NCBI GenBank assembly: GCA_964393375.1 | Contig: CAYMTM010000001.1 | Coordinates: forward strand, 258 to 64,257 | Direction of reading: 5' to 3' | Length of the DNA: 64,000 nt | Origin: an uncultured Rhodospirillaceae bacterium | Lineage (GTDB): Bacteria; Pseudomonadota; Alphaproteobacteria; JAEULC01 | In this document: positions 2,776-59,061 of the stretch, in pieces | Position numbering within the stretch: position 1 is the stretch's first letter | Layout of the letters: every line of letters starts with the position of its first letter | Made by a program: the position numbers and the translations under genes | Notes under the pieces: model-generated | The model's database searches: none | What the model was told of the DNA's origin: nothing | The model's input: only the letters and a program-made list of their open reading frames with translations

Positions 2776-3573
2776 TCAGGCCGCGGACGTGGCCCGCAGC
2801 GTGCGGTCGGAAGCGACGATGTCGCCGAGCTGGCGCATGAAGTCGCGGTAATACGCCGTCGTGTAATGGAAGGGCTCCAGGCTCCACTTGTGCCCGGCGT
2901 CGCCCAACCGATACTCGGGCCTGGGGCGGATGGTTCGAATCGCCGCTGAATCCGCTTCGATCCTGGCATAGTAGGTCGACAGGACCTCGTTGATCGCGTG
3001 GATTTCGTCGCGGTTCGGGAACTGGACGACCTTTTCCTCGCCGTCGAGGAAGCATTCCGACCACAGCGCTTCGTGCAGGATGGTGCGCTCGGGCGGCACG
3101 ATCGTCCCGAGCCGCCGCATGAAGCGGGGTATGTTCGAAAGCGTCGCCTCCACGACGCGTGGATCGAGCGCGCCGCGCCGTTCGAACCGGCTGGTGTCGA
3201 TGCCGTGGGCCTGGGCCGTGCGCACGAAAGGCACCGAATAGCACAGGCAGGTCTCGCCGGAGACCAGGATCGAGTGGCGCTCGTCGATCAGGTCGACAAG
3301 CAGGTAGTCGAATTCGTGCTGGGCGAGGGTGTCGAATTGCAGCTTCAGCAGGTCGATGGCGACACAACGCTCCTCGAAGGGGCGCCGCTCGACCGTCGGT
3401 GCGATCCGGTCGATCGGCGGCGCCGGTGACAGGCTCGAGTTGATCGTCGTGCGGGCGAGGTAGACCGCGATCGTCCATTCGCCCCGCGGTTCCCCCGATA
3501 GCTCGAACGCATCGCGGGTAACGCAACTTCCGAAGATGCCGAACCGCAAGGCGTTTGCCCCCTTTTTCGTCAT
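2776..3573 (-). CDS. hypothetical protein, DUF6270-like (GSCVxRD N-terminal motif); likely polysaccharide-cluster accessory enzyme
   Basis: 265 aa. The N-terminus MTKKGANALRFGIFGSCVTRDAF resembles the DUF6270 family seen next to glycosyltransferase clusters. It is divergent from the multi-GT gene and shares an AT-rich promoter region with it. Family recalled from memory. Confidence 0.5.
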   Translation of the reverse strand: MTKKGANALRFGIFGSCVTRDAFELSGEPRGEWTIAVYLARTTINSSLSPAPPIDRIAPTVERRPFEERCVAIDLLKLQFDTLAQHEFDYLLVDLIDERHSILVSGETCLCYSVPFVRTAQAHGIDTSRFERRGALDPRVVEATLSNIPRFMRRLGTIVPPERTILHEALWSECFLDGEEKVVQFPNRDEIHAINEVLSTYYARIEADSAAIRTIRPRPEYRLGDAGHKWSLEPFHYTTAYYRDFMRQLGDIVASDRTLRATSAA

Positions 3574-3682
3574 TGCGGCGCCCGGGACCTGGACACCATG
3601 GACAGGTTTATATTGACCTTTATTAAGGGACCGTTAGCCATTCGCGCGTTAGAAAAAGCTCGGCGCAAATGGAGCGAGTTAG

Positions 3683-6600
3683 ATGATAAACTCCTATATT
3701 TTTAAGGACCTTATGACCACACCTCAAACTCTTCATTTGCGCGGCGTCTGTCCTCAATTCGGTGTATTTACGCTTAATTTTATTGATGAGAACGGACTGC
3801 AGCCGCTTCACATGGCCTTCCGGGTCAGCGTCGGCCATATCGCGCTGAACGACAATCTCAAGGGCCATTGGGGTGAGGAACTTGTCATCGACAACGTCGA
3901 GTTCCCGATGGGCCTGCCGTTCGAGATCAGCATCGAACTCCTGGGCCGTCAGCGCATTCGGCTCTCGATGGACGGCTCCGTGCTCGGCGAGTTCCCCTGG
4001 CGCCATGACATCGCGGCGGCAGTACGATTGGACATGGTGGACGTCGAGTTCAGCCTGTTCCGCAACGACACCAGCTTCAAGACCCTTCCCGAGAACGTGA
4101 TTGCGCCCGAAGAAGAGGCAGCGGAGCCGGGGCAGGCGGCGGCGCGGTTCGAGGACGGTTCGGATCAATTAGCGCGGCATTTGCGCGAATTGCGCGCCGA
4201 TTACATGCAGGGGCTCGAACGGCTGGAGAACCGGATCGAGGGGATTTCGGAGGAGCTGCGCGCGCTGCAGAAGGTCGCCTCCGGCATCGCCGCCAGCGTG
4301 CAGGCCCTCATCGCGCTTGACGTGCGCGCGGTGGAATCCGCGCAGCGCCCTGCCGGCGCACCGCGGATCGCGCCGCCGCAGGCATCGCCGCGCGGACTTG
4401 TGGTGGAGGACAAGTTCGTCAAGGGTTGGGGCGACTGGCGTCACCACCAGAAAGTCAAGCTTTCCGACCTGGGCCTGTTCCAGGTGCAGCAGGAGCGCAG
4501 CACGCCCGGCATCGAGCGCAAGGCGCTCGCCGTGGAGCCGGGGTCCTATTACGAGTTCTCGGTGACGGGAAACTTCAAGGTCGCCAATCGCGAACTGTTC
4601 ATCGCCGCCTACGACCCGGACAACGATCTGACGCTGACCGCCGCCCGTTATGCCGAGAAGGAGTCGGGCACCGTCACCGAGACTTTCATGACCACCGCGC
4701 GCACCAAGCGGGTGATCCTGCGCGTCATGGTCGACCAGCCGAAGATCGGCGACGAATGCCGTCTGGAAAGCGCAAGCCTGACCCTGCTTGGGCGCGCCGA
4801 CCTCTACGCGCCGGCGCGCGCGGGAGAAGCGCAGCCAGAGGAGGGCATCTGCGCGTCGATGGCGTCGGTCGCCGGGCGCGAGGCCATGGTGGTCGACGCG
4901 GTGCTGAGCCTCTATCCCTTCGTCGACAAGGTGCGCGTGTACCTCAACAACTATTCCAGCGTGCCCGAGGGCCTGAAGCTGCCGCGCGTCGAGATCGTGC
5001 GGTCGCAGCAATACGGCGACAACGGCGACGCAGGCAAGTTCTTCTGGGTAGAGGACAAGCAATATCCGTTGAATCTGGTCTGCGACGACGACCTGATCTT
5101 TCCGCCGGACTACGTGCCGCAGATGGTTGCCGCGCTCAAGCGGTGCGGGAACAAGGCGGTCGTCGGCATCCACGGGGTGCTGTTGAAGCAACCCTCGCCG
5201 TCCTATTACGACGAGAGGTTCCGCCATGTGCGCCGCTATCCGCACGCCAACCGCGAGGACTGCCAGGTCCATGTGCTGGGCACGGGTGCGGTGCTCTACG
5301 ATCGGCGCACGCTGAAGCTCGAATGGCGCGACTTCCAGTACCGCAACATGGCCGATATATGGCTCATGGAGCAGTGCCAGAAGCAGGGCATTCCGTCGAT
5401 CTGCATCGCCCGGCCGCGCAATTGGGTGATCCAGAACCAGGTCAAGGGCGGCGTGCCTACCATCTATGACGCCTCGCACGGCCGGCAGGGCAACGGCTTC
5501 GACACCGGCGCGGTCCAGACCTATGTGGTCAACAAGAACTGGCCGGTGACACTGAAGCCAACGGTCGTCAACGGCCAACGCCGGCCGAAGGTCGTCCTGT
5601 CGATCACGACCTGGAACCGGTGCGACTACCTGAAGGAATGCATCGAATCGTTCGAGCGTACGCGCTCCACCAGGTACGATTGGGTGCTGATCGTGGCGGA
5701 CGACGGTTCGACCGACGGGACGCTCGCCTATCTCGACCAGCTCGTCCTGCCGCACGAGGTTCACGTCATCCGCAACAAGGGGCGCTATGCCTGCGGACAG
5801 ACGAATACGATTTTCGATTTGTGCCGGAAGATCGGCTTCGACTTCGCCTTCAAGATCGACGACGACATCCTGTTTAAGAAGCGCGGCTGGGACACGCTCT
5901 ATATCGAGGCCGCAGCCGCCAGCGGTTACGACCATCTCTGCCACCGGAATTGGAAGCACTTCACGGGGTTGAAGCGCCGCAACAACCCCAACTACTCGCC
6001 GCCGCCGCCGCATATCGACGCGTCGGGAAAGTGCGAGACGATCGTCGGGGTGTGGGAGTGCGACGGGTGCCTGTTCACCTTCACGCCGACGATGATCGAA
6101 AAGGTGGGTTATTGCGACGAGGCCAATTTCCCGATCCGCGGCCAGTGGCATATCGACTACTCGATCCGGGCCTGCCGTGCCGGCTTCAACGACGCCAAGC
6201 ACTTCTACGACGCGCGCGACAGCAACGCCTATATCGAACTGCAGGCCAACAAGCCGACCTATCGCTGCTCGCTGCCCTGGGGCGACGCGTACAAGAAGAC
6301 CAAGGAACCGGCGGAGCTCGAGCGCCGCGAGCGGGTGATGCGCGACGAGAGCCGTGTCTACGTGGCGCCGGTGAGCGCGCCGGCGCCGCTGCGGCGGCCG
6401 TTGCGGGCGGCGACGTTCTTCGACAAGGTCTACGTGCTGAACCTCGACCGCCGGCCCGATCGGCTGGCGACGGTCAGTGCGCATCTGAAGCGCCTGGGCA
6501 TTCCGTTCGAGCGCTATGCGGCAGTGGACGGCCGCGCCAAGCCGCATATCGACGAGTGGAGCGTCTATCAAAAGCAGCCCCTCGTAACCGCCCCCGAGGG

Positions 6601-7306
6601 CGTACGCAAGCTGACGCGGTCCAAGGACTTCTACCAGAACTACGACAGCCACGTGGCCCGCGTCGCGTTCATGGAGGGCCAGCTGAAGGCCAAGGCGATC
6701 CGTACACCCGGCGCCTGGGGCTACTTGAAGAGCTATATCGGCATCCTCGAAACGGCGCTGAAGGCCGGGTACGAGTCGATCCTCGTGCTGGACGATGACG
6801 CGCTGTTCCACCGCGACTTCGACGCGCTGTTCCAGGCTGCGGCCAAGGAACTTCCGCCGGATTGGGCGATCTTCCAGCTCGGCGCCCTGCAATACGATTG
6901 GGGCGACCAGTGGATCGCCAAGTATTCCGAGCACCTCTATATGTGCAACGGCTCGAGCGTCGGCTCGCATGCCACCGGCATCCGGCGCAGCGTGCTGCCC
7001 GCCCTGCTGCACGAGGCACAGCGCTTCGACATGCCGCTCGACGTCGGTGCGCTGTGCCGGGTCAAGCGGGCCTTTGCGGAGCGCAGCTTCACCGTCCTGC
7101 CGAACTTGGTCATCCAGGACACCAGCGAGAGCGACATCGCGTCCTCCGATGTCCAGCAGGCCGAGGGGATGAAGAAGACGAATATCTATCGCTGGAAGCT
7201 GGAAGACTATCCGGGCGCGATCGTGGAAGCGGACGCCAGGCAGCGCAACCCGCGCCGTCCGGCCGCCAAGCAGGCGCAAGCGGCCGCCATGACGGGTACG
7301 GACTGA
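3683..7306 (+). CDS. 1207-aa multidomain glycosyltransferase: N-terminal galectin-like lectin domain, coiled coil, beta-sandwich, then three GT domains (GT-A with DDD motif, GT2-like, GT25)
   Basis: SD GGAGCGAG before the ATG.
- aa ~40-110: LHMAFRVSVGHIALNDN..GHWGEEL..FPMGLPFEISIEL parallels the galectin CRD motifs HFNPRF / VCN / WGxEE / FPF..F.I.I.
- aa ~150-215: heptad-rich coiled coil.
- aa ~400-600: GT-A fold with LVCDDDLIFPPDY.
- aa ~635-900: SITTWNRCDYLKECIESF..LIVADDGSTDGT (GT2-like).
- aa ~915-1150: FFDKVYVLNLDRRPDRL (the GT25 LPS/LOS galactosyltransferase signature).
The first ~120 nt of the coding region is AT-rich. Confidence 0.8.
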   Translation: MINSYIFKDLMTTPQTLHLRGVCPQFGVFTLNFIDENGLQPLHMAFRVSVGHIALNDNLKGHWGEELVIDNVEFPMGLPFEISIELLGRQRIRLSMDGSVLGEFPWRHDIAAAVRLDMVDVEFSLFRNDTSFKTLPENVIAPEEEAAEPGQAAARFEDGSDQLARHLRELRADYMQGLERLENRIEGISEELRALQKVASGIAASVQALIALDVRAVESAQRPAGAPRIAPPQASPRGLVVEDKFVKGWGDWRHHQKVKLSDLGLFQVQQERSTPGIERKALAVEPGSYYEFSVTGNFKVANRELFIAAYDPDNDLTLTAARYAEKESGTVTETFMTTARTKRVILRVMVDQPKIGDECRLESASLTLLGRADLYAPARAGEAQPEEGICASMASVAGREAMVVDAVLSLYPFVDKVRVYLNNYSSVPEGLKLPRVEIVRSQQYGDNGDAGKFFWVEDKQYPLNLVCDDDLIFPPDYVPQMVAALKRCGNKAVVGIHGVLLKQPSPSYYDERFRHVRRYPHANREDCQVHVLGTGAVLYDRRTLKLEWRDFQYRNMADIWLMEQCQKQGIPSICIARPRNWVIQNQVKGGVPTIYDASHGRQGNGFDTGAVQTYVVNKNWPVTLKPTVVNGQRRPKVVLSITTWNRCDYLKECIESFERTRSTRYDWVLIVADDGSTDGTLAYLDQLVLPHEVHVIRNKGRYACGQTNTIFDLCRKIGFDFAFKIDDDILFKKRGWDTLYIEAAAASGYDHLCHRNWKHFTGLKRRNNPNYSPPPPHIDASGKCETIVGVWECDGCLFTFTPTMIEKVGYCDEANFPIRGQWHIDYSIRACRAGFNDAKHFYDARDSNAYIELQANKPTYRCSLPWGDAYKKTKEPAELERRERVMRDESRVYVAPVSAPAPLRRPLRAATFFDKVYVLNLDRRPDRLATVSAHLKRLGIPFERYAAVDGRAKPHIDEWSVYQKQPLVTAPEGVRKLTRSKDFYQNYDSHVARVAFMEGQLKAKAIRTPGAWGYLKSYIGILETALKAGYESILVLDDDALFHRDFDALFQAAAKELPPDWAIFQLGALQYDWGDQWIAKYSEHLYMCNGSSVGSHATGIRRSVLPALLHEAQRFDMPLDVGALCRVKRAFAERSFTVLPNLVIQDTSESDIASSDVQQAEGMKKTNIYRWKLEDYPGAIVEADARQRNPRRPAAKQAQAAAMTGTD

Positions 7307-7376
7307 CCGCAGGGCGCCGGGACGCGGCCGAGTGCCGCCCAGCGGCGCCCGATCCGGGGCGGGAACGGAGACCCAC

Positions 7377-9989
7377 GTGATCCCCCGAATCCTTCATTAT
7401 GTCTGGGTCGGCGGTCGGCCGCTGCCGGAGAAATCCAGGATCAATATCGAGACCTGGAAGCGGTTCTGCCCGGATTTCGAGATCCGGGCCTGGACCGACG
7501 ACAACGTCGCCTTCGACCGGCCATACCTGGCGCGCTGCCGGGCGCTCGGCCACTGGGCCAACGCGTCGAACTACTTGCGGCTGGAGAAGCTGCTGGAGCA
7601 CGGCGGAGTCTACCTGGACGTCGATATCATGATGCGCCGGACGTTGGCACCTATGCTGCGAAATCGCTGTTTCCTGGGATTCCAGGTCGAGGCCCAGGAG
7701 AACGACTGGGTCAACAATGCGGTCTTCGGCGCCGAGCCCGCCCACTGGTTCGTTGCGCTGTGCCGCGACCGCCTGCTGGCTGAATTCGACGGCGCCGAGC
7801 CGGCGAACCACTCCTCGCCCCGATTGGTGACAAGGCTCCTGCTCGAGCAAGGATTGACCCGCTATCGCCCGGGCGGCGTAATGGTGCGGGACGTCCGTGT
7901 CTATCCGCAGCCGGTATTCTATCCCTACTCGTGGAAGGAGGAGTTCACGCTGGGGGCGATCAGGCCGGAGACGGCGACGGTGCATTTCTGGGAGAAATCC
8001 TGGCACATTGATGCGGCTGCCCGACCGGTCGGCGACGAGGAATTGCGTGCGCGGCTGGCGAGGCTCGAGATCGCGCATCATCGCCTGATCCGCGACGCCG
8101 TGCTGGCGGTCGCGCCGCGGCCCGAGGGTCGGTGGTCGTGGGCGGGACTTCGCTATTGGTTCCAGCGCCTGGGCCGTCCCCGCCGGCACGCGGTCAGGCC
8201 GCTGCTACTGGCGGGCGCGACGTCCTTGTGGGCGTTGCTTGCGTCGCCGGTTCTCGCGGCAGCCGCTTGCGGCCTTTCTTTCGACGATGCCGGCTTGCGC
8301 GCAGGCCCGGTGGTAACCGGCGGGGCGACGGTCAGGCGGGTGGGGTGCGCATCCGACGCCGCCTCTACCCATCATTGTATCGCCATCGTGCTGGAAAGCG
8401 GCGATCGTGCGTCCGTGGCGCGCTTTACCGCCGCCGCCCCGCGGCCGTACCGGCTTTGGCTGCGGGTAGGCACCGATGCGCGGTCGGGCAAGATGCGGCT
8501 GGGACTCAACGACGGCCCGGTGCGCGACTGGTTCGTTCCGCCGACGCAGGCCGGTAACTGGCAGCTTGTTACGCTGCCGGACGGTAGGACGCCCGCGATG
8601 TTCGATCTCAAACCGGGCGAGAACAGCCTGCGTATCGAGCCGCCGACCGATGGCAGGACCGTCGCGGCGGCGGATTGCGCCGTATTGTCGGCCGACCCGC
8701 ATTTCATCCCCACCTTCACGGCCGTGCACGAGCTCGACCGCGCCTGGTCGGGCGTCGGCGTGCTGTTCGACGCCTTGGCCGACGAGCGCAACGTCTATGT
8801 CGGCTATTACAATGCCGAGCGGATGCTGTCGGCGGCATCGTTCGATCGCGACACCAGATCGTGGCGCCGCGTGCCGCTGGCCAGCCGGTTCGAGGGCTGG
8901 GACAACCACAACGCCATCGCTCTGGCGCTCGACAAGGCGGGCAATCTGCATGTCGCCGGCAACATGCATGCCTCGCCGCTGGTCTATGCCCGCACGGCCG
9001 AGCCGCGCCGCCTGGAAACGTTGCAGCTGCTCAACCGCATGGTCGGGTCGGACGAGGCCAGGACGACCTATCCGACCTGGGTGGCGATGCCCGATGGCGG
9101 CTTGGCCTTCATCTATCGCTCGGGCGTTAGCGGGACAGGGCAGCACGTCATCGACGTCCTGGTCGACGGCCAGTGGCGCCGGCAAGGCGACGCGGCGCTG
9201 TTCGGCCAGGCTTCCGGCGGCTTCAGCGCCTATCCGACCGATCCGCTGCGCGGACCGGATGGCCGGCTGCACATGGCCTGGGTTTGGCGGCGGACGTCGG
9301 AGGCGCAGACGACCTTCCAGGTTTCCTATGCGCGCAGCCGGGACTTGGTTCACTGGGAAGACGCGGCCGGCAAGCCGCTCCAGTTGCCGCTGCGGCCGGG
9401 GCCGATGGGCGTGGTCGACAACGTGCCGGAGCGGGCGGGCCTGGCCAACCAGGTGGTCCTTGGGTTCGACGCCGAGGGCCGGCCGATCGTCTCCTACCTG
9501 AAGTTCGACGCCAAGGGCGCGACACAGCTCTACAACGCGCGGCCGACGGCCGCGGGGTCCTGGCAGATCGTCCAGACCAGCGACTGGCAGGACCGTTGGG
9601 AATTCGAAGGCCGCGGCACGATCCAGGCGCTGGTCCGCCTCGAGGCGGCGGCAGTGGACGATGCCGGGGCGCTGGTCCAGGGGGTGCGGCACTGGCGCGC
9701 CGGTCGGTTCGAGTTCGTGCTCGATCCCGGAACGCTGCGGCCCGTGGCGGCGCGTCCGCCCAAGCGCATGCTGCCCTGGGTGCTGACCCAGCCGAGCACG
9801 GACGAGCCCGGCTTCTTCGCGATTGCGATCCCGGTCCGCGACGCGCGGGCCGCCGGCAAGCCGACCGGCTTCGTCCTGCGCTGGGAGGCGCAGAACAGCG
9901 ACCGCGACGCAATGCCTGCCTGCACGCCGCAGCGCCCGCGCGCCTGCGACCCGCCGCCGTCGCTGTTGACGGTGTTGGAGAAACGATGA
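7377..9989 (+). CDS. glycosyltransferase (sugar-binding DXD-region family, GT32/Gly_transf_sug-like) fused via a TM segment to a C-terminal BNR_4-like beta-propeller domain
   Basis: GTG 7377 has SD GGAGA 7 nt upstream; ATG 7332 is an in-frame alternative. The N-terminus has ILHYVWVGG..P and YLDVDIMM (DXD), typical of the sugar-binding DXD GT family. A hydrophobic stretch LLAGATSLWALLASPVLAAAA follows at aa ~280-305. The C-terminal ~550 aa carries repeated His/Trp-rich blades (NLHVAGNMHASPLVY, RLHMAWVWRRT) resembling BNR_4-type propellers. The propeller assignment is tentative. Confidence 0.65.
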   Translation: MIPRILHYVWVGGRPLPEKSRINIETWKRFCPDFEIRAWTDDNVAFDRPYLARCRALGHWANASNYLRLEKLLEHGGVYLDVDIMMRRTLAPMLRNRCFLGFQVEAQENDWVNNAVFGAEPAHWFVALCRDRLLAEFDGAEPANHSSPRLVTRLLLEQGLTRYRPGGVMVRDVRVYPQPVFYPYSWKEEFTLGAIRPETATVHFWEKSWHIDAAARPVGDEELRARLARLEIAHHRLIRDAVLAVAPRPEGRWSWAGLRYWFQRLGRPRRHAVRPLLLAGATSLWALLASPVLAAAACGLSFDDAGLRAGPVVTGGATVRRVGCASDAASTHHCIAIVLESGDRASVARFTAAAPRPYRLWLRVGTDARSGKMRLGLNDGPVRDWFVPPTQAGNWQLVTLPDGRTPAMFDLKPGENSLRIEPPTDGRTVAAADCAVLSADPHFIPTFTAVHELDRAWSGVGVLFDALADERNVYVGYYNAERMLSAASFDRDTRSWRRVPLASRFEGWDNHNAIALALDKAGNLHVAGNMHASPLVYARTAEPRRLETLQLLNRMVGSDEARTTYPTWVAMPDGGLAFIYRSGVSGTGQHVIDVLVDGQWRRQGDAALFGQASGGFSAYPTDPLRGPDGRLHMAWVWRRTSEAQTTFQVSYARSRDLVHWEDAAGKPLQLPLRPGPMGVVDNVPERAGLANQVVLGFDAEGRPIVSYLKFDAKGATQLYNARPTAAGSWQIVQTSDWQDRWEFEGRGTIQALVRLEAAAVDDAGALVQGVRHWRAGRFEFVLDPGTLRPVAARPPKRMLPWVLTQPSTDEPGFFAIAIPVRDARAAGKPTGFVLRWEAQNSDRDAMPACTPQRPRACDPPPSLLTVLEKR

Positions 9990-31947: not shown

Positions 31948-33753
31948 TCAGAAGGTCGAGCTGCCGCGCACCGGCGCCGCATCGCCGCGGTAAAGAGCCG
32001 CGGCCGTATCGACGGCAGCCGTCAACGCGGCGGCTTGCGCCTGATCGCCGGCGGCGCGGAGGCGGGCGGCAAGCCATTGGCTGACTTCGAACGCGAATTC
32101 CACCTGCCCGAAGACTTCGGCGATCACTGCAAGCTTGATGGTTTGGTTCGTGTCAAGGGCCGTGAGCCCGCTGCTGCCGTCCGCGTCGACGGGATCACGC
32201 AAATACAGCGAATGCCCCTCGATCAGTTGGCCCCAGCTCGACACGAGTTGGCCCAGGCGGCCCACGAAGCCCGGCAAATGCTGGACGACGACCGGCGCCG
32301 CGGCACGCCCGACATAGTGATGGGCGACCAGGTCGAAGAAGGTGAATCCGGCGCGACGCAGGAAGGCGTCGATGTCGGAGAAGAACGGCCGCGCGAGATA
32401 GGATTCGACGAAGGCGGTCTCGGCCAGCACGCCCAGCATCCCGTCGAGGCATGGGCCGGCGGCTGCCAGAATGTCCAGCTCGGCACCTTGCACGTTGAGC
32501 TTGCAGAAATCGATCGCGGGGACGCCGGCGGATGCGGCCCATCGCGCGATCGAGGTGACCGGCATGTCCACGGTGCGCTCGGGCCGGAAAATCTCGCGCG
32601 CAAGCGACGTTTGGTGCGGGTTCTCGAACCGCCACCGGTCCGTGACCTTTGTGTTCTGATCGAGAAACGAACTGCCGCCGCTTGCCTTGTTGACGTGAAA
32701 GGGCAGCCTGCCGTCGTCCTTCCAAAGGCCGACCGGATAGTAGGCGCCCTGATAGCCGAGGTCGCGCAGGGTGCGGTTGAGGCGCTCGCATTCCGGCGGG
32801 TCCGGCTCGAAGCCGTGGAAGGAAAGGCGGTCCGCCGGCAGCTCGCGCCAGCGCGGATCGGCATGGGCGTCGCGCGCGCCTCCATCGAGCACGACAATCC
32901 GTTCGCCGCGCGGCAGCATTGCCAGGAGTCCCGGCGCAAGGCGCAGCCGCGGCTCCGGCTGGCGCGTTGGCGCGGCAGGGTTAGCCGTCCCGGCGCCGTC
33001 GGCCTCTCCAGCTCCGTCCAGATAGCTCGCCACTTGCCGCGCGATCTCGCCGATGTTGCGGCTGCCCGTCTGCTGGCGCGCCAGGTGGACCACGGCTGCC
33101 CATCCGCCCTCGTTGGAGGGATCGCGGCGCAAGAGGCCCTGGAAGACCCGCGCGGAGTCGGCGAAGCGGCCCAAATGGGCAAGCACCTGGCCCAGCGTGG
33201 CGCGCGCCGTGAGGTTGGCGGGATCGAGCGCGATCGCTTCCTCGAAGGCGGCAAGCGCGTCGTCGTAGCGCCCAAGCCGGGCATGGATGCTGCCGAGCTG
33301 AAACCAGGTATCGGCGCGGCGCGGCGCGAGCGCGCTTGCCACCCGGGCAAGGCGCTCGGCCTCGGCGGGATGGCCGGCATCGACGGCAGCGACGGCCGCC
33401 CCGAGAGCCGCGTCCGGATCGGAGACGCGCTCGATCAACGCCGAGAGTTCCGCCGCGCGCCCCGCCCTTACCAGCGATCCAAGCAGTTCCGTCTGCGCGA
33501 GCCGGCCCGCGCCGCGGCCAAGCCCATCCTGCAAGGCAGCGATTTTGAGCGGCAGTCCGCCGTGCACTTCCAGGAACCTGCCGAGGGCGGCCCAGGATTC
33601 ATCCGAGTCCGGCACGAGGCGCACGGCACGCGCATAGGCCCACTGTGCGTCGTGGAAACGACCGCGCCGGGCCAGGTAGGTCGCTTGCAGGCGCCCCAAC
33701 AGCCCAAACCGATGGCGGGCCGCGGAGACAAGCCGTTTCAGGTGCTGCTTCAT
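31948..33753 (-). CDS. TPR-repeat protein fused to an FkbM-family methyltransferase domain
   Basis: N-terminal TPR-like Ala/Leu repeats (AEAERLARVASALAPRRADTWFQLGSIHARLGRYDDALAAFEEAIALDP). The C-terminus has the FkbM signature (FHGFEPDP...IDFCKLNVQGAELDIL). The start at ATG 33753 is uncertain because there is no clear SD. Confidence 0.7.
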   Translation of the reverse strand: MKQHLKRLVSAARHRFGLLGRLQATYLARRGRFHDAQWAYARAVRLVPDSDESWAALGRFLEVHGGLPLKIAALQDGLGRGAGRLAQTELLGSLVRAGRAAELSALIERVSDPDAALGAAVAAVDAGHPAEAERLARVASALAPRRADTWFQLGSIHARLGRYDDALAAFEEAIALDPANLTARATLGQVLAHLGRFADSARVFQGLLRRDPSNEGGWAAVVHLARQQTGSRNIGEIARQVASYLDGAGEADGAGTANPAAPTRQPEPRLRLAPGLLAMLPRGERIVVLDGGARDAHADPRWRELPADRLSFHGFEPDPPECERLNRTLRDLGYQGAYYPVGLWKDDGRLPFHVNKASGGSSFLDQNTKVTDRWRFENPHQTSLAREIFRPERTVDMPVTSIARWAASAGVPAIDFCKLNVQGAELDILAAAGPCLDGMLGVLAETAFVESYLARPFFSDIDAFLRRAGFTFFDLVAHHYVGRAAAPVVVQHLPGFVGRLGQLVSSWGQLIEGHSLYLRDPVDADGSSGLTALDTNQTIKLAVIAEVFGQVEFAFEVSQWLAARLRAAGDQAQAAALTAAVDTAAALYRGDAAPVRGSSTF

Positions 33754-34083
33754 CCGAGCGATCGAACTTGCGGAGGGGCGAAGGGCCGCAGAGTAGCGGG
33801 TTTCTGTTCGCGCGAGTAGGCCCCTTCGCCACGCGACCGGAGGCCCGGTGCACCCGGTTGCCCGCATGGCGCAGCCAGCGCGGCGCGAGCCGTGCGGGCC
33901 AAGCGTGACAGTCGGCATCGCGATAGATATATAGGGCCGTCGCTGAGCGTCCATGACGGCGAAGGGCGAAACCGGAGTAGGGGCTAGGACAACCAGTCCG
34001 AAGACTGCTTTGGCGCAATCTGGCTACTCCTGAAGACGTGACAGATAAAGAGGGGCGCGTGGTCCAATGCGCCAGGAGCGATT

Positions 34084-36780: not shown

Positions 36781-39700
36781 CTACCCGAATACGAACTGTT
36801 GTGCGGCGAGTTGGGCGATGGTGGTGTTCTGGAGGAGGATGGAATTGTTGGCGTCGAAGGCGATGGTGACGCCGGCGGCGCTCTGGGACATGTGGGCCTG
36901 GAGTTGGGCGAAGGTGGAGATGCCGTAGAGGTTGGCGTCGTTGAGCAGGATGGTGTCGCCCTGGGATGGGGTGAAGTCGGCGATGGTGTCGCGGCCGCCC
37001 GAGAACTCCCAGACGAACTGGTCGGCGCCCGCCCCGCCGGTCAAGGTGTCGTTGCCCATGCCGCCGGTGAGGAAGTCGTTGCCGTTGCCGCCCTGCAGGA
37101 TGTCGTTGCCCGAGTTGCCGTAGAGGTAGTCGTTGCCGTCGTCGCCCTGGACCAGGTCGTCGCCGGCGCCGCCGAACAAGAGGTCGATGCCGCCGCCGCC
37201 GGCGATGGTGTTGTTGGCGGTGCCGCCGTAGACCAGCTCGTTCTTGGCGCTGCCGGTGTAGTTGGCGCCGGCGCCGGTCTGGACCAGGATGTCGCCGCTG
37301 TCGAGGTAGCTGCCGTCGGCGAGCTTGGGCGTGACGTTCCACAGCGGGTTGTCCTCGAACGACCCCTTGGCGAGGTTGAAGGTCTGGGCGATGACGTAGC
37401 CGTAGGCCTCGACCGCCTGGGCCGAGCCGGTGGCGCTGACCAGCGTGGCCATGGCGGCGCGGGCCTGGGCGGCGTAGCCGCCGGACCAGTCGGGATAGCC
37501 CTCCATGGTCATGGTGGCGGAGGCGGTGGCGGGGTCGTAGCCGGAGGCCTGGTAGGCCTCGGCCCAGGTGTCGAGATAGTTGCCCTGGGCGTCGCGGATG
37601 GCGAGGTTATAGGTCGGGCCGGCGGCGGGGTTGTAGCCGAGCTCGCCGCTGGTGAACCGCCCGGCGGAGAAGTTCTCCATCCAGGCCAAGAGCGTGCCGG
37701 CGTCGGCGTAGCCGCGGCTGTAGGCCTCGCCGAGCACGGTGATCAGGTAGTCCTGCTGCCAGGGGGCCATGATCGTGCCGCTGCCGTCGCCGTAGTAGGA
37801 ATCGATCCAGCCCTCGAGCTGGCCGGCGGCGTCGTTCCTGCCGCCGGTGACGTAGGTCTGGACCAGGTAGGCGAGGTTGGATTTGACCAGCCCGTCGAAG
37901 TAGGCCTTCATCGGATCGCCGTTGGGGGTGATGTAGGCGGCGTCCATCAGGTCGCGCAGGGTCCAGGCCAGCGCGCGCAGCTGCTCGGCGCCCGGCGACA
38001 TCACCCCGCCGCCCTCGGTGTAGTAGGGGTCGCGCATGGCGATCTCGGTGGCGGCCTGGGCCTGCAGCTCGTCGAGATAGTAGTGGCTGCCGGTGAAGAG
38101 ATAGGGCAGGTAGCTGAGCGCCGGCGGGTGGGCCAGGTCCGGCGTCCAGCCGGCCAGGCTGGCGCCGCTGGGATAGTCCGGGATGCTGCCGGCGCCGGTC
38201 CCGCGCGAGTCGATCCACAGGTTGGGGTGCTGGTCGACGCGTACCGGGTTAGAGGTCGCCTCGTCGGTGTAGTGCCAGGGCACCGCCCCGGCGGCGTCGG
38301 CCTGGGCCAGCATGACGTCGAGCGCGCGGGCGTCCTGGGTCAACAGATAGCGCGCATACCATTCCGGGATCGGGCCGATATCCGGCCGGCCGCCGGTCTG
38401 CGGCATGTACTGCAGCACGAAGGCCGCGCCCAGCGGGCCGGTGTCGGCCGCCGCCAGCGCGGCGTAGTCGCCCGCCACCGCGGCCGCGTCGACCCCCTGG
38501 GCGGTGTCGAGCGCCGGCACCGCGCCGGTCTTGATCAGGTAGTCGACGTCGCGCTGCACGTTGATCGAAGGCTCGCCCTTCAGCCACGCCTCGACGTGCC
38601 AGGTCGAATTGGCGTGGTGGAACATGTTGGCTTCGCTGTAGACCACCGTGGCGCCCTGCTTGACCGCCACGTCGTAGGTGAAGGAGTTGATGCCGGGCGT
38701 GAAGGTCGAATCGTTGGCCAGGATCACGTCGGTCATGACGTTGCCGTCGGCCGTCACGCGGATGTCGAAGATCGCCTTCAGGCCCGTCGTCAGCGTGGTC
38801 TGGACGCGGAACTCCGAGGCCTGGCTGCCGCTCATCCAGGTCTCGACCGTGCCGTTGGCGATCGAGCTCTGCAGCAGCTGGGCGACGTTGACCGACTTCA
38901 GGGTGGTGGTGCCGTTGGCGTTGTGCAGGTTGACGTCGAGCGTCACGTTGAGGCCCTTGGCGATCGCGTCCTGCGCGGTCAGGACGGCGCCGCCCGCGGC
39001 CGCCGCGTGCTTCAGCATCACGTCGACCTCGCCGTTGCCGGCCAGCGCCGGCGCCTGCAGGGTCAGGATCGCGTGGCGCACCGAGCCGTCGGCGTTGAGC
39101 GCCTTGACGTCGATCTGCACCGGCACCGAAACGCCGTTGATCGCCGCCACCAGCCCGGTCCCCGGCATCAGGTCGCCGGCTTTGAACACCTGCCCGAACG
39201 AGACGATCGCCGCCGCCTGGGCCGAAGCCGAGGTGTTCTGCAGGGTCATGCCCACCAGATCGCCCGCCGCGCTCGCCGCCGGCACGTCCGGCACCGCGAT
39301 CAGCCCCGTCGTGCTGCCCCCCGTGGAGCCGCCCGTGGAGCCGCCGGTGGAGCCGCCCGTGGAGCCGCCCGTGGAGCCGCCCGTGGACCCGCCGGTGGTG
39401 GTCCCGCCATTGGTCAGGTCGATCACCCGGTCGGCGAACCTGGCGTACTCCACCGAAACCAGGTGGTCGCTGCCCTCGGCCAGCCCGGCGCCGGCGGTGC
39501 CGGTGATCTGCCACGACCCGTCGGCCAGCTTCGCCACCGTGTAGTCGGCGTAGTTGCCCTGGAACACCGCCGTGTCGCTGCCCGTGCCGCCGTCCAGCCA
39601 GTCGTTGCCGCCCCCGCCTTTCAGCGTGTCGTCGCCCGCCATCCCCAGCAGCGTGTCGCCCCCCGACCCGCCGGTGATCGTGTCGTGCCAGCCCGCCCCC

Positions 39701-42700
39701 TGCAGCGCCGAAATCCCCGTCAGCTTGGTGGCGGAGAAGTCCAGCACGCTGCCTTCCCACGACCCCACCACCGTGACGTTGGCATAGCCGCCCGCCGAGA
39801 CCTCCTCGATCCCGCTCGCGGGCGCGAAGTTGCGCAACTGGATCGTCGTGCCGGCCTGCGTCGCCAGGATGATGTCGTAGCCCGCCGTCCCGGTGTCGAC
39901 GATCGTGTCGATGCCGTCGGCGGTACCCCCCACCAGGTAGGTGTCGCTGCCCTGGCCGCCGTCCATCGTGTCGTCGCCGCCGCCGCCGCGGATCACGTCG
40001 TTGCCGGCCCCGCCCCAGATCGTGTCGTGCCAGCCCCCGCCGTTGATCGCCACGATCCCCGTCAAGGTCGTGTTGCGGAAGTCCAGCACGCTGCCGCTCC
40101 ACCAGCCCTGGATCGTCACGTTGGCGTAGCCGTTGGCGGTGATCTCCTCGATCCCGCTCGCGCTCTTGAGCCCGATCGCCGTGCCGGCCTGCGTCGCCGC
40201 GATCCGGTCGAAGCCGGAGGTGCCCGTATCGGCGATCGTGTCGTAGCCGTCCCCGGTGCCCCCCACCAGGTATATGTCGCTGCCCTGGCCCCCGTTCAGC
40301 GTGTCGTCGCCGCCCGCCCCGCGGATCACGTCGTTGCCCGCGGTCCCGTTCAGCACCTCGCCCGAAGCCGTGCCCACGATCGTCGGCGTGTACGTCACCG
40401 TCCCCGCCGAAACCGGGTCCACCACCACGCTCAAGCTTGCCGTCGCCGTCGCCGTCGCGCCCCCGTTCGACTCCGTCGACGTCGCCCTGACCGTCAGCAC
40501 GAAATCCGCGTCCGAGTTCGCCGGCGGCGTGATCTTCAGCCCCGACAACTGCGAAGCCGTCAGCAGCCACGTCCCGTTGCCCTGGTTCGTCCCCGCCGAA
40601 AGCGTCGCCCCCGCCGGAACCCCGGAAATCGTCACCGACAGGCTCTCCGAACCGTCCAGGTCCGTCAGCGCCGCCGAAATGTTCAACCCAATCGCCGTGT
40701 TCACCAGGCCCTGCGCCGGCGAAACCGACAGCGTCGGCATCGACGCCGTCGTGTCGACCGCCGGCAGCGTCACCGGCAGGATCGCCGTGGTCGTCGCCGT
40801 AGATCCGCCGGTCGCCTCCGTCGACTTCGCCGTCACCGTCAGGCTGAAGCTGCTGGAGTTCGCCGGGGGCGTGATGGTCAGGCCGGAAAGCTGGGCCGGC
40901 GTCAGCAGCCACGTGCCGCCGCCCTGGTTGGTCCCCGCCGACAGCGTCGCCCCGGTCGGCACTCCGGCGATCGTGATGGACAGTGACTCCGACCCGTCCG
41001 TGTCGGTCAATGCCGCCGCTATGTTGAGCGGCACCGCCCCGGAGCCCGATCCCGACGCCGGCGACAGGGTCAGGCTCGGCGCGTCGGCCACCGCCGCGAC
41101 CGTCACCGGCAGGCTTGCCGTCGTCGTCGCCTTGGCCCCGCCGTTCGATTCGGTGGACGTGGCCGTCACCGTCAGCGCGAAGTCTGCGTCCGAATTGGCC
41201 TTCGGCGTGATCGTCAGGCCGGAAAGCTGCGCCGGGGTCAGCAGCCACGTGCCGCTGCCCAGGTTGGTGCCGGCCGACAACGTGGCGCCGGCCGGAACGC
41301 CGCTGATCGCGATCGACAGCGTCTCCGACCCGTCGAGATCCGTCAGCGCCGCCGCGATGTTCAGCGCGATCGGCTTGTCCTCCTGGCCAGAGGCGGCCGA
41401 AACGCTGAGCGTCGGCTTCGACGCGGTGATGTCGCCCGACAATCCGCCCGAGGCGAGCTGGCTGACCGCGATCGTGGTGTCGGCGAAGCTGATGAAACTG
41501 ATACCCTGCAGCAGGTCGGTACCGTCGCCGCCCACGTTGTCGCGCACCGTCACGTTGCCGTTGGCCGCAAGGGTCACGGAATAGTTCGCCGCGGCGCCCC
41601 TGAAGACGGCCGTATCGACGCCGCCGCCGCCGATCATCGTGTCGTTGCCGCCGCCGCCGGAAAGGGTATCGTTGCCGGCATTGCCCCTCAGCGTGTTGGC
41701 CAGCGCGTTGCCGGTCAGCGATGCGCCCGTGGTAAGACCGATATTGCCCCACTCGACGTTCGCCGCCAGCGTATAGGCCTGGATGAACGTGCCGACGCCG
41801 TCGTTTCCGCCGCCGGCCGCCTCGATCACCACATCGTTGGCGCTGTAGATGCCGTAGATGTCGTCCCCGGCGCCGCCGATCAGCGTGTCGCCGCCGCCCA
41901 TGCCGAGCAGCACGTTGTTGCCCGCGTTGCCGACCAGCGTCTCGCCGCCACCAGCCGTGCCCCATCCGGTCAGATTGCCGGTGCCCCCGAGTTCGAGGAT
42001 CTCCACGTTCGCCGCGATGGTCGTGTTATCGACGAACGTAATCATGCGGTCGGCCGTGCCCTGGCCCGCCGCCTCGATCACCACGTCGCCGGATTGGTCG
42101 ATATAGTAGGTGTCGTTGCCGGCACCTCCCGACATCGCGTCGGCGCCGGCGCCGCCGTTCAGGACGTTGTCGCCGCTGTTCCCGTAGAGCGTATCGTTGC
42201 CGGCGCTGCCGGCGCCCGCCAGGTTGCCGCTGCCGGTCAGCCGCAGCACCTCGACATTGGCGGAAAGCGTGTAGCTGACGCTGGAATAGATCGTGTCGAT
42301 GCCTTCGCCGGCGTTCTCGGCCACCACGTCGCCGGACGAATCGACGAAATAAGTATCGTCCCCGGCCCCGCCGATCATCGTGTCGTTGCCGGCGCCGCCC
42401 GTCAGCGTATCGTTGCCGGCATTGCCCCTCAGCGTGTTGGCCAGCGCGTTGCCGGTCAGCGATGCGCCCGTGGTAAGACCGATATTGCCCCACTCGACGT
42501 TCGCCGCCAGCGTATAGGCCTGGATGAACGTGCCGACGCCGTCGTTTCCGCCGCCGGCCGCCTCGATCACCACATCGTTGGCGCTGTAGATGCCGTAGAT
42601 GTCGTCCCCGGCGCCGCCGATCAGCGTGTCGCCGCCGCCCATGCCGAGCAGCACGTTGTTGCCCGCGTTGCCGATCAGCGTCTCGCCGCCGCCGGCCGTG

Positions 42701-44418: not shown

Positions 44419-44689
44419 AGCAGCATCCTCGCGAAGGCTTTGGCTTCCTAGGCGCCGTCTACCTTTGCGGGCATGCCCTTGGGCCGCATGCCGCGCCCAC
44501 TTCGCGGGGCGCTGGGACCGCTTCAGACGACGCGCCGACCCGTCCGTGCTGTGGTTTTGCCCAGGTCGGACCGACGCTTAATGGTGTGGATAACTCTCTT
44601 AAGGAAAACCTAAGTGTAATGATGAAGCGTTTACTAATGCTTCCAATTTTCGCTGATCTTGAAGCAAGTTAAACGGCAGAAAACACAAC

Positions 44690-44731
44690 GGCCCGGCAGG
44701 TTTAGCCGCCGGGCCGTTAGTCTTTACTTTT
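44690..44731 (+). terminator. intrinsic terminator-like hairpin after the mini-ORF / downstream of the convergent phasin gene
   Basis: Stem GGCCCGGC (44690-44697) pairs with GCCGGGCC (44708-44715) around a 10-nt loop, followed by GTTAGTCTTTACTTTT. A second hairpin CCCCCCTGGCGCGGGGG lies at 44733-44750 and could serve the minus-strand phasin. Confidence 0.5.
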
Positions 44732-44762
44732 AACCCCCCTGGCGCGGGGGCCTGTGACCTTT

Positions 44763-58163: not shown

Positions 58164-58401
58164 GGGAGCGCATCACTTTTTTCGAGGGACAGCCGGAACC
58201 TGGCGGATCGCGCGGCGCGCGCCTGTCTGCCATAGCGCCTGCCGCGACGCAACATTCCAAAGCTCTGCTTAACAATGACTTAACCGCGCCGTCCCGTGAT
58301 CGAGGACACAACGCTAGCGTGATGGCCGGCACAGGTCGACCAACGCAATTCGCGTAAAACCGAGTGGCTAGTTCAACCAACGCCGACAGGGAGTCAGCGT
58401 C

Positions 58402-59061
58402 ATGTTCAGGAAGATCGTCCTCGCCGCGTTCGTTTCCATCTTCGCCCTTGCCGCCGTCACCGGCACCGCCGAAGCGCGGCCCGGCGGCGTGCTCGGCGGC
58501 GGGCATGGGCCCGGCGCGCTGGCCGGCGGCCCAGGCGGGCATGGCGGCGGCAGGATTGGCGGCGGGCCCTTGGCCAACGGGCCGCAGGAAGTCGGGCCCT
58601 CGGGAAAGCTCGGCAAGAAGCAGGGCGGGCCGCTGGCGCAGCGCCAGGGCCAGGGCAGCGGCCCGGCCAATCAACTCGCCAATACCCAAACGTCCCCCGC
58701 CGCCGTGACGAACAACGCGGCGAACACGGCGAGCGGAACCGCGACCGGCACCTATGCCGGCGGCAACGCGGCGACCGTCAGCGGAAACACCGTCAGCGGC
58801 AACACGACCGCCAGCAACAACCAGGTCAGCGTCTACGGCAACCAGGCTGCGGCCACCGGCACGGCGTATCCCTACCCGTACCCGTCGTACCCGTCGCTCG
58901 TGGTGGCGCCGACCGCCGGCACGTCGACCAGTTCCTCTTCGGGCACGACGACGACGTCCGCTGCGGCGCCCGCTCCCCAGTGCCCTGCCGGTACGTCGCT
59001 GCAGTCCGCGACCGTCAGCTCGACCGGCCAGACGACGATCGTCTGCGTGGCCGCGAAGTGA
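58402..59061 (+). CDS. secreted Gly/Ala/Thr-rich low-complexity protein
   Basis: Signal peptide MFRKIVLAAFVSIFALAAVTGTAEA, then GGxG and NT/SG repeats, with two Cys near the C-terminus. No family recognised. Confidence 0.45.
   Translation: MFRKIVLAAFVSIFALAAVTGTAEARPGGVLGGGHGPGALAGGPGGHGGGRIGGGPLANGPQEVGPSGKLGKKQGGPLAQRQGQGSGPANQLANTQTSPAAVTNNAANTASGTATGTYAGGNAATVSGNTVSGNTTASNNQVSVYGNQAAATGTAYPYPYPSYPSLVVAPTAGTSTSSSSGTTTTSAAAPAPQCPAGTSLQSATVSSTGQTTIVCVAAK

Follow-up and report, generated by a model that had tools for sequence, protein, structure and literature searches.

Why does the most AT-rich 200 bp in a 64-kb stretch of GC-rich alphaproteobacterial DNA lie across the start of a glycosyltransferase gene? 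The stretch analysed (hereafter the window, 64 kb in length) has 67.3% GC, and an initial annotation had read an AT-rich island at 3590-3800 as the mark of horizontally acquired or silenced DNA and of tightly regulated surface-glycan genes. From the evidence below, the island looks not like foreign DNA but like the place where a surface-glycan glycosyltransferase operon of an uncultured alphaproteobacterium is controlled and begins.

The GC trough lies in the first 40 codons of a glycosyltransferase gene

The island is real. The sliding-window GC calculation proposed with the initial annotation gave a clear dip relative to the flanks: 3593-3792, at 41.5% GC, is the lowest of all 200-bp windows in the 64 kb and lies about 5.5 SD low (200-bp windows: mean 0.673, SD 0.047). 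The interval first annotated, 3590-3800, has 43.1% GC, and the sequence strings quoted for it are found in the window. The features around the island are as follows.

3607..3792, no strand: AT-rich island proper, the maximal-scoring AT segment (186 bp, 40% GC)
2776..3573, minus strand: DUF6270 gene, divergent (Pfam)
3671..3674, plus strand: Shine-Dalgarno (SD) GGAG, 8 nt 5' of the ATG, read from the sequence
3683..3802, plus strand: true start codon (ATG 3683) and first 40 codons, with AT-rich synonymous sites
3683..7306, plus strand: galectin-like + GT2 + GT25 glycosyltransferase (GT), 1207 aa, first gene of the operon (Pfam)
7332-9989: Gly_transf_sug+BNR_4 gene, second in the operon (Pfam)
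ending at 10831: GT2 gene, after the Gly_transf_sug+BNR_4 gene (Pfam)

Relative to the ATG, the island extends from -76 to +110, and its lowest 100-bp window (3683-3782) has 38% GC. Composition had been put at about 40% GC over both the intergenic region and some 40 codons; this stands for the codons (40%) but not for the 109-bp spacer (3574-3682), where the dip is moderate (53%). GC is truly low over the first 40 codons of the galectin-GT2-GT25 gene and rises abruptly at codon 40/41. Among 34 genes compared (rough gene calls within the window), the first 120 nt of the GT gene stand apart at 0.40 GC, against a mean of 0.66 (SD 0.08) and a next lowest value of 0.53. The other 33 genes show only a small GC drop at their start (mean GC of the first 120 nt, 0.66). 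Overlapping small ORFs in the island are short and unremarkable.

The first 40 codons encode MINSYIFKDLM and then the first strands of the galectin-like domain (Pfam Gal-bind_lectin match, residues 11-116). This N-terminal peptide is conserved among homologs and is the most conserved part of the domain, continuous with the rest of the galectin fold; an SD-like purine-rich sequence occupies the same position in all homologs. Full-length relatives of the GT protein are very rare (about 14 among 5.8 billion proteins) and come from Alphaproteobacteria or Rhodospirillales MAGs. We compared 13 related loci, at 59-86% protein identity. The homologs were obtained with the full-length query; a protein search with the N-terminal 260 aa returned nothing, and a metagenome scan with the N-terminal alignment returned zero loci. 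Exact-protein look-ups of the window's genes found identical strains only, which, with 0 differences over 3401-4000, are uninformative on evolution. Across the homologous loci, operon gene order is kept. The upstream neighbour varies (a methyltransferase, an HMGL-like gene, PMSR, or DUF6270 on the same strand), and the DUF6270 gene is no obligatory partner of the island.

The AT-rich start is maintained in a gene with host-like codon usage

The composition of the island is carried by synonymous sites. GC3 in the GT gene is 0.40-0.42 over codons 1-40 and 0.85-0.87 over the rest, and 20-codon windows with GC3 below 0.55 are confined to codons 1-27 of 1207. Third-position AT (AT3), taken family-wide in 10-codon bins, runs 0.42, 0.36, 0.39 and 0.35, then 0.16, 0.16 and 0.12; elsewhere in the family its mean is 0.13 (SD 0.05, maximum 0.30). 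The step at codon 40/41 is sharp and family-wide. In the same 40 codons, synonymous codon identity between distant pairs is just 0.26-0.45, so what is maintained is the composition and not the sequence. We rejected a specific conserved nucleotide element in codons 1-40 as a candidate, since synonymous codon identity there is no higher than in the rest of the gene.

Such islands had been taken to mark horizontally acquired loci. If this were so here, the 5' segment would be an unameliorated remnant from a low-GC donor, joined to the gene at a mosaic junction; alternatively, a local neutral mutation bias could be at work. Transfer finds some encouragement in the GC of the operon body, slightly under that of its neighbours, and in the different genomic contexts of the operon in different genomes, which imply that it moves on evolutionary time scales. 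However, the GC3 of the GT gene body (0.86) is like that of neighbouring genes, and this host-like codon usage does not support a recent acquisition. The AT-rich start and the codon-40 edge are also present in orthologues down to 63-65% identity (loci L017 and L015); in L017, GC3 is 0.45 in codons 1-40 and 0.40 in codons 11-40, against 0.95. Because the synonymous sites of the orthologues have diverged to chance level, amelioration should long have erased an AT-rich start, and its persistence means that it is maintained and is no unameliorated foreign remnant. The peptide encoded there, the most conserved of its domain and continuous into the galectin fold, likewise argues against a junction. 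On these comparisons the transfer-remnant reading is largely refuted already, and we leave it, together with mutation bias, next to no probability. We conclude that the AT-rich patch is, with high confidence, a real and selected feature.

A CtrA-type box keeps a constant distance to the start codon

The response regulator CtrA is conserved in most Alphaproteobacteria and is found in 72-82% of Rhodospirillales genomes (PMC8116508); the consensus of its box is TTAA-N7-TTAA (PMC4083442, PMC4287350). The spacer upstream of the GT gene contains a conserved CtrA-type box, which the initial annotation had overlooked. This box and the related features of the window are:

3623..3641, plus strand: CtrA-type box TTAA-GGGACCG-TTAG, then CCAT; 5' nucleotide at -60 from the ATG
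3649..3662, plus strand: predicted -10 region TTAGAA (3649-3654) and transcription start site (TSS) near 3662
36781-44418, minus strand: giant RTX ORF, with an AT island (44533-44741) upstream
44599..44613, no strand: second CtrA-like box, TTAAGGAAAACCTAA, inside the AT island 44533-44741
57288-58163, minus strand: galU-like gene
58269..58283, no strand: exact TTAA-N7-TTAA, TTAACAATGACTTAA, between the galU-like gene and the secreted Gly-rich protein gene
58402-59061, plus strand: secreted Gly-rich protein gene

The box at 3623-3637, TTAAGGGACCGTTAG, has one mismatch to TTAA-N7-TTAA, its second half-site being TTAG; the literature admits near-consensus CtrA sites of this kind. Sites with at most one mismatch number 3 in the 64 kb, against 0.75 expected, and all three lie in promoter-type intergenic DNA beside envelope genes. 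The giant RTX gene had been credited with a similar AT-rich 5' region. A deep AT island (minimum 36% GC) is indeed present there, but it is upstream and non-coding and does not cover the 5' coding end, the first 120 nt of the RTX ORF having 68% GC. It shares the design of the island studied here (about 200 bp of AT-rich DNA plus one box), placed wholly in non-coding DNA, where space permits.

Across the related loci, a box with zero or one mismatch starts 59-64 bp before the ATG in all 13 promoter-proximal homologous starts (10 distinct spacers), although only three of these boxes are perfect. When composition-preserving shuffles were made for 11 loci, all of which carry the box at -59 to -64, they gave a mean of 0.2 loci with a box and a maximum of 3; the chance of a box per locus is 5e-4 to 8e-3. 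Two loci fetched after the prediction of the box, L016 and L017, both bore it out: in L017 the box at -59 is exact, and in L016 the galectin-only first gene carries an exact box at -60 and a further box at -119. The GT gene of L016, second in its operon, has no box in front. In L001 the box is kept and the island is just 41 bp long.

In Caulobacter, the 5' nucleotide of an activating full CtrA motif lies near -35 to -39 from the TSS (PMC4287350, PMC11264516). By this spacing we infer a TSS near 3662. Hexamers resembling xTAAGA are conserved in the four closest homologs. A generic sigma-70 promoter and terminator scan of 3400-3900 returned nothing, GANTC (the CcrM methylation site) does not occur in 3400-4000, and neither CtrA nor MucR, nor any response regulator, was found among the ORFs scanned in this 64 kb of genome. 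A SigT/EcfG-type promoter (GGAAC-N16-CGTT), considered by eye, was discarded: the window has GGACC-N14-CGTT, with the wrong spacing, and the GGAAC-like half is not retained in L008 or in the L011-L014 group.

The fixed-distance box in 13 of 13 related promoters agrees with the earlier view of a tightly regulated glycan-type operon whose regulatory region lies at the island. We consider the box a likely functional regulator site and lean, with less assurance, towards CtrA as the regulator that would bind it. This suggests that CtrA-type control, tied to the cell cycle or to development, may govern the synthesis of the operon's glycan in uncultured Alphaproteobacteria.

The AT-rich codons may act on DNA or on mRNA

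Composition beside a CtrA-type box brings to mind the MucR/Ros family of H-NS-like silencers. In GC-rich genomes MucR1 favours AT-rich DNA, and it represses G1 promoters that CtrA activates (PMC4083442); the higher the AT%, the stronger the recruitment of MucR (PMC8857273). A 5-bp AT stretch with TpA at its centre forms the MucR core, and Ros/MucR target regions are described with AT cores less than 10 nt apart (PMC5693944). At the promoter and gene start studied here, the AT-rich tract has 40% GC over 186 bp in a window of 67.3%. Six AT runs with TpA steps, each 5 bp or longer, lie in it, where 0.39 would be expected per 250 bp; nowhere in the window are they denser. TpA steps number 16 (about 3 expected), and the AT/TpA cores form three clusters about 60 bp apart, more widely set than in the described Ros/MucR regions. 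The xenogeneic trait of a gene that is AT-rich throughout, with atypical codons, is absent (gene body GC3 0.86-0.87, as in neighbours). Across homologs, upstream and coding AT-richness tend, as expected, to trade off against each other, a correlation that is not significant among these non-independent loci (rho = -0.51, p = 0.11). A DNA-level silencer platform is a possible role of the tract, which we hold at clearly less than an even chance.

The same CtrA-type promoter could instead be followed by 40 AT-rich codons that act on the mRNA, as an unstructured start or a rare-codon ramp allowing efficient loading or spacing of ribosomes. The proposed length of a codon ramp is about 40 codons, and in this genome AT-ending codons are rare. 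In the window's clade, 50-nt segments fold with only -3 to -6 kcal/mol between 0 and +80 nt and with -10 to -20 past +100. Both marks of a generic 5' coding effect, lower GC and weaker local folding after the start codon, are present. The AT3 step accompanies the coding sequence in all lineages, and it is weakly kept in the GT gene of L016 (GC3 0.43 in codons 11-40 against 0.60), a gene not directly preceded by a promoter; this is a hint that the cause may lie within the coding sequence itself. In that same gene, however, codons 1-10, the most important for initiation, have a GC3 of 0.9. Genes are universally GC-poor just behind the start codon, the more so the higher the genomic GC, but this weakens within a few 30-nt windows (PMC2816680); the AT-richness here is flat over 120 nt and ends at a sharp edge. 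The other 33 genes of the window drop little (mean 0.66), so the effect seen here is not the generic one. Predicted accessibility of -20..+20 is 0.32 for the native sequence against 0.43 +/- 0.05 in synonymous recodings, a comparison made with an equilibrium model only, and it is significantly better in just one of six loci (L008). An mRNA-level role is nevertheless a serious contender, to which we assign roughly a third of our confidence.

The low predicted accessibility of the translation initiation region in the window would be explained by a predicted stem between the 5'UTR/SD and codons 17-20:

3663..3742, plus strand: lineage-specific inverted repeat; 3663-3674, GCGCAAATGGAG, is complementary to 3731-3742, CTTCATTTGCGC (codons 17-20)

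This raises the prospect of translational riboregulation, in which the 5'UTR and SD would pair with codons 17-20 and hide the ribosome-binding site, the AT-rich stretch would be a floppy loop, and the stem would need a trigger to open it, for instance temperature, an sRNA or a protein. The 12-bp stem (3663-3674 / 3731-3742) is near-perfect, and RNAfold gives 3660-3750 a minimum free energy of -24.4 kcal/mol (z = -2.67), a stability that 2 of 200 shuffles reached. The topology recurs in L009 (z = -2.0), and in L001 and L010 the UTR pairs in a related way with codons 19-22 (z = -1.6 and -1.4). Distant homologs, however, have z values of +0.7 to +1.0, so the fold is not family-wide. RNAalifold over -40..+130 of 11 homologs returned no conserved stem or other structure and essentially no covariation (consensus -5.7 kcal/mol, covariation term -0.2), and an Rfam scan of 3300-4100 returned nothing but a chance miRNA match. 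Moreover, GC-rich patches within an AT-rich stretch tend to pair by chance, and the coding arm of the stem is set by the conserved residues LHLR. We regard both the masking stem and its opening by a trigger as improbable.

Rho-dependent attenuation would use the composition in another way: a C-rich, G-poor and unstructured stretch of about 80 nt at the start could serve as a rut site, with transcription going on only if the mRNA is translated. G makes up 10% of the first 60 nt, where C/G is 2.7; the 78 nt from 3683 hold the fewest G of any such stretch in the 64 kb, with a C/G ratio at the 99.9th percentile; and local structure is weak. Only the window and L008 (2.7) show this skew in full, however: it declines to 1.7 in L001 and 1.4 in L009, and distant homologs (0.8-1.3) lack it, whereas the AT3 step is shared by the whole family. 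C itself, at 27%, is not abundant. We consider a rut site very unlikely.

A proposed switch of CtrA-type box and silencer platform

The reading that we prefer combines a CtrA-type promoter with an AT-rich tract kept by selection, probably as a DNA-level silencer platform. The box TTAA-N7-TTAG-CCAT (3623-3641) would overlap the -35 element of a promoter that starts transcription near 3662, whose 5'UTR of about 20 nt, with the GGAG ribosome-binding site, would be followed by ATG 3683. Selection keeps the synonymous positions of 40 codons AT-rich, and the resulting low-GC, TpA-rich tract of about 190 bp would act mainly at the DNA level, as a platform for a MucR/Ros (H-NS-like) silencer. We propose that this platform must reach into the coding sequence because the intergenic spacer measures only 109 bp. 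CtrA~P at the box would activate or counter-silence the promoter, comparable to the CtrA/MucR-controlled G1-phase promoters of Caulobacter, and glycan synthesis would be gated by the cell cycle or by development. Here we infer the identity of both proteins, and the action of the coding AT tract on DNA and not on mRNA. As a whole the model is tentative, and we rate it as somewhat short of an even chance. The narrower claim that coding sequence was recruited as regulatory DNA, with 40 codons and a short spacer making up a MucR-like platform of about 190 bp with its CtrA box, we rate as rather unlikely.

If the model holds, a compact CtrA/silencer switch would be conserved outside Caulobacterales and Rhizobiales, and the footprint of a silencer would be written into the codon choice of a native, not a foreign, gene. 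The operon, very rare, uncharacterised and headed by a multi-domain glycosyltransferase, gains a concrete and testable promoter. The 40-codon step offers a clean natural case for asking whether selection on codon choice works on DNA (silencer platform) or on mRNA (initiation or ramp), and foreign origin need not follow from a local AT island in a GC-rich genome.

Comparison with known systems

Coding sequences universally have less GC and less mRNA structure at their 5' ends; this trend and the codon ramp resemble the present case in the GC drop after the start, the weak folding and a similar ramp length. They differ in magnitude, the GC3 drop here being about 0.45, compared with about 0.1 or less in most neighbouring genes, and in shape: the reduction here is gene-specific and flat, with a sharp edge at codon 40 and without a predicted gain in ribosome-site accessibility.

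In classical xenogeneic targets AT-richness takes in entire genes or islands; here it is limited to about 190 bp, and the gene body is host-like. The likeness to MucR/Ros H-NS-like silencing of AT-rich loci in Sinorhizobium and Brucella lies partly in the class of gene, surface polysaccharide and envelope genes being typical of MucR regulons. In the window, unlike at MucR/Ros-silenced loci, about two thirds of the tract is coding and AT-rich at synonymous sites.

CtrA single-box -35 promoters include the Caulobacter class II flagellar promoters and those of ccrM, pilA and ctrA (P2). The galectin-GT2-GT25 operon is not a described member of a CtrA regulon, and the second half-site of its box in the window is TTAG. 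It shares with these promoters the half-sites, the 7-bp spacer and a single box near the gene, whose constant distance from the start would suit a -35 position with a short leader. As in those promoters, the half-sites are conserved and the spacer is variable, the host is an alphaproteobacterium and the target belongs to the envelope or surface. The G1-phase promoters controlled by CtrA and MucR1/2 in Caulobacter share a further trait with this locus, a tract of about 200 bp, rich in AT and TpA, that surrounds the promoter and gene start beside a CtrA box in a GC-rich genome.

The deepest GC trough of the window spans the start of a glycosyltransferase gene

The window has a GC content of 67.3%, and the interval 3590-3800 falls to 43.1%. 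A windowed scan bore out the initial annotation, which had described a GC dip in a ~68% GC background and quoted strings that are indeed present: the lowest 200-bp window in the 64 kb is 3593-3792 (41.5% GC), about 5.5 SD below the 200-bp window mean (mean 0.673, SD 0.047). The locus comprises the following features.

2776-3573, minus strand: divergent DUF6270 gene (ORF, domain match)
3607-3792: AT-rich island, -76 to +110 from the ATG, 186 bp, 40% GC (maximal-scoring AT segment)
3623-3641, plus strand: TTAA-N7-TTAA match (CtrA-type box), TTAAGGGACCGTTAG, then CCAT
3683-7306, plus strand: gene of a 1207-aa protein with galectin-like (residues 11-116), GT2 and GT25 domains (ORF, domain matches)

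The dip had been assigned to both the promoter and the 5' coding end. The coding part of this claim stands, with the first 40 codons of the glycosyltransferase (GT) gene at 40% GC, but the spacer (3574-3682) is only moderately low, at 53%. The trough is not at the place expected for a "promoter island". Conservation indicates that ATG 3683 is the true start of the GT gene, because the peptide MI[NS]SY[IVA]F[KR]DLM and the SD-like purine run preceding it are kept family-wide. Two JGI metagenome annotations (loci L005 and L006) begin at Met11 (3713; 1197 aa); given the conserved MINSYIFKDLM peptide and SD, these public gene calls are 10 codons short.

The island belongs to a rare glycosyltransferase operon

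Fusion of a galectin-like domain to GT2 and GT25 is very uncommon in bacteria: 5.8 billion proteins include about 14 full-length relatives. A full-length search of these proteins identified 13 homologs with the same domains (59-86% identity). DNA sequence covered 12 of the 13, every one from Alphaproteobacteria or Rhodospirillales MAGs and metagenomes; copies from other samples encoding identical proteins are identical in DNA here and hence uninformative. In the more distant relatives P0015 and P0016, an FkbM methyltransferase domain or TPR repeats take the place of the N-terminal part. The window itself encodes two large TPR proteins, one with a C-terminal caspase (Peptidase_C14) domain (60857-63433) and one with an FkbM methyltransferase domain (31948-33954), the domain family that substitutes for the galectin end in those relatives.

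On the same strand, the GT gene is followed by genes for a Gly_transf_sug+BNR_4 protein and another GT2, then by unrelated transport and catabolic genes. The 5' neighbour differs among loci (divergent DUF6270, methyltransferase, HMGL-like gene, PMSR, or same-strand DUF6270), which assigns the island to the GT operon rather than to the divergent gene. The closest relative, L008 (86% identity), has a class I methyltransferase gene (L008 2235-2888) where the window has the divergent DUF6270 gene, between the same flanks (gamma-glutamyltranspeptidase upstream, GT operon downstream). The two loci evidently differ by a gene swap in one slot adjoining the conserved promoter.

A synonymous-site step is confined to the first 40 codons

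GC at third codon positions (GC3) of the GT gene is 0.40-0.42 in codons 1-40 and 0.85-0.87 afterwards, and 20-codon windows with GC3 below 0.55 are confined to codons 1-27 of 1207. Start codons in GC-rich genomes show a generic GC softening (PMC2816680). This was ruled out as the explanation: the first 120 nt of 34 rough gene calls have a mean GC of 0.66 (SD 0.08), and the GT gene, at 0.40, lies well below even the second-lowest gene (0.53). Averaged over 11 homologs, AT content at third positions per 10-codon bin is 0.42, 0.36, 0.39 and 0.35, then 0.16, 0.16, 0.12 and on; elsewhere in the gene it averages 0.13 (bin SD 0.05, maximum 0.30). The step is most pronounced in four loci, those of the window, L008, L009 and the distant L017 (GC3 0.38-0.45 in codons 1-40 versus 0.85-0.95). 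It is weaker in the other loci, and weakest in L010 (GC3 of codons 1-40, 0.88), L002 (0.80), L012 (0.75) and L001 (0.68).

Synonymous codon identity showed no excess in codons 1-40 over the rest of the gene (0.26-0.45 in distant pairs), so it is composition that is kept, not nucleotide sequence. This counts against a sequence-specific element embedded in these codons. Composition maintained across homologs despite synonymous divergence likewise counts against neutral drift and an unameliorated foreign segment. The initial annotation had named horizontal acquisition as one possibility; with a gene-body GC3 of 0.85-0.87 and composition maintained across diverged homologs, recent acquisition is unsupported. 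The one feature worth an experiment is this 40-codon step, conserved and sharply bounded.

A CtrA-type box lies at a fixed distance from the start codon

The upstream regions of the homologs are otherwise unalignable. Yet the box, with 0-1 mismatch, has its 5' base 59-64 bp before the ATG in 11/11 loci, against a mean of 0.2 and a maximum of 3 in composition-preserving shuffles. All 13 promoter-proximal starts carry it, with 10 different spacers (per-locus chance 5e-4 to 8e-3). L016 and L017 were fetched later and served as an out-of-sample test of box position. L017 (65% identity) has an exact box, TTAATGCCGGATTAA, at -59. The L016 GT gene occupies the second position of its operon, lacks a box and has lost the conserved N-terminal peptide; the gene ahead of it encodes a stand-alone galectin-like paralog (220 aa; L016 2275-2937) that retains this peptide (MISTYAFKDLM), with exact boxes at -60 and -119. 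A flagellar rod-type gene lies nearby (Flg_bbr_C, weak match).

The window contains three matches with at most one mismatch (0.75 expected), all in promoter-type intergenic DNA adjoining envelope genes: the GT operon, the giant RTX ORF (44599) and a galU-like / secreted Gly-rich protein pair (58269). The last (58269-58283, TTAACAATGACTTAA) is the sole exact TTAA-N7-TTAA in the 64 kb and is very similar to the -119 box of L016 (TTAACAATGGGTTAA). It separates a minus-strand galU-like nucleotidyltransferase/UDP-glucose dehydrogenase pair from a gene (58402-59061) whose 219-aa, Gly/Ala-rich product begins with a stretch resembling a signal peptide and matches no Pfam family.

TTAA-N7-TTAA is the CtrA box, and SciP ChIP peaks contain a related half-site motif, GTTAACCAT, overlapping CtrA sites (PMC4083442). 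CtrA is conserved in most Alphaproteobacteria, most Rhodospirillales included (PMC8116508). The box is probably a functional regulator site, and CtrA is the somewhat favoured candidate for the regulator. In Caulobacter, the 5' base of full motifs that activate transcription lies at about -35 to -39 relative to the TSS (PMC4287350, PMC11264516); the same spacing would put the TSS near 3662, with a leader of ~21 nt containing GGAG (3671-3674).

The AT-rich tract could act on DNA or on mRNA

The RTX gene had been credited with a similar AT-rich 5' region. An AT island exists there, but it is upstream and non-coding, and the first 120 nt of the ORF are 68% GC.

36781-44418, minus strand: giant RTX ORF
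44533-44741: RTX AT island, minimum 36% GC, second-deepest in the window, non-coding
44599-44613: CtrA-like box in this island, TTAAGGAAAACCTAA
44763-45296, minus strand: phasin gene

Its layout resembles that of the GT island (~200 bp AT-rich plus one box), although it is wholly non-coding. A GC-rich hairpin within it, at about 44690-44720, resembles a phasin terminator.

The GT-operon spacer is only 109 bp, so an AT tract of RTX-island size must extend into the gene. The coding tract may act chiefly at the DNA level, serving as a platform for a silencer, a reading we hold only tentatively. Ros/MucR proteins recognize AT runs with TpA (PMC5693944), their recruitment scales with AT% (PMC8857273), and Caulobacter MucR proteins repress CtrA-activated G1-phase promoters (PMC4083442, PMC4287350). 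Six AT runs of 5 bp or more in the island contain TpA, a density unmatched elsewhere in the window (mean 0.39 per 250 bp), and its TpA steps number 16 against an expectation of about 3. Counting against action on DNA, the AT/TpA cores form three clusters about 60 bp apart, and L001 has the box but an island of only 41 bp. Compensation between upstream and coding AT-richness across homologs was not significant (rho = -0.51, p = 0.11). The six runs form three pairs (3607-3626, 3686-3705, 3765-3784) starting 79 bp apart (3607, 3686, 3765), about 7.5 helical turns, and the first two clusters share the words TATATT...TTAAGG(G)ACC.

That the coding tract acts mainly on mRNA is an equally tentative reading. 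Only very weak local folding is predicted between 0 and +80 nt, but the predicted accessibility of the window's ribosome site shows no gain (0.32 versus 0.43 in synonymously recoded controls), a significant gain appears in only 1/6 loci, the generic effect is far smaller in neighbouring genes, and codons 1-10 of the L016 GT gene have a GC3 of 0.9. The leader/SD may pair with codons 17-20 in a translational control stem, predicted from a near-perfect 12-bp complementarity (3663-3674 / 3731-3742; window fold -24.4 kcal/mol, z = -2.67) that recurs in L009 (z = -2.0); its absence from distant homologs makes it lineage-restricted. The same restriction applies to a rut-like, G-poor and C-rich tract at the gene start. 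C/G over the first 60 nt is 2.7 both in the window and in L008, and 3683-3760 (78 nt from the ATG) has 10 G, the fewest of any 78-nt plus-strand window in the 64 kb, and ranks at the 99.9th percentile for C/G ratio; C/G is about 1 in distant homologs, the composition being common to the closest relatives only. Neither an Rfam family match nor a conserved RNA structure was found for the island.

We conclude that the island is a genuine feature, exceptional for the window and maintained in evolution. The description that fits it best is a promoter of CtrA type joined to an AT-rich tract at the start of the transcribed and coding sequence, controlling a glycan operon; elements of both kinds are already known.
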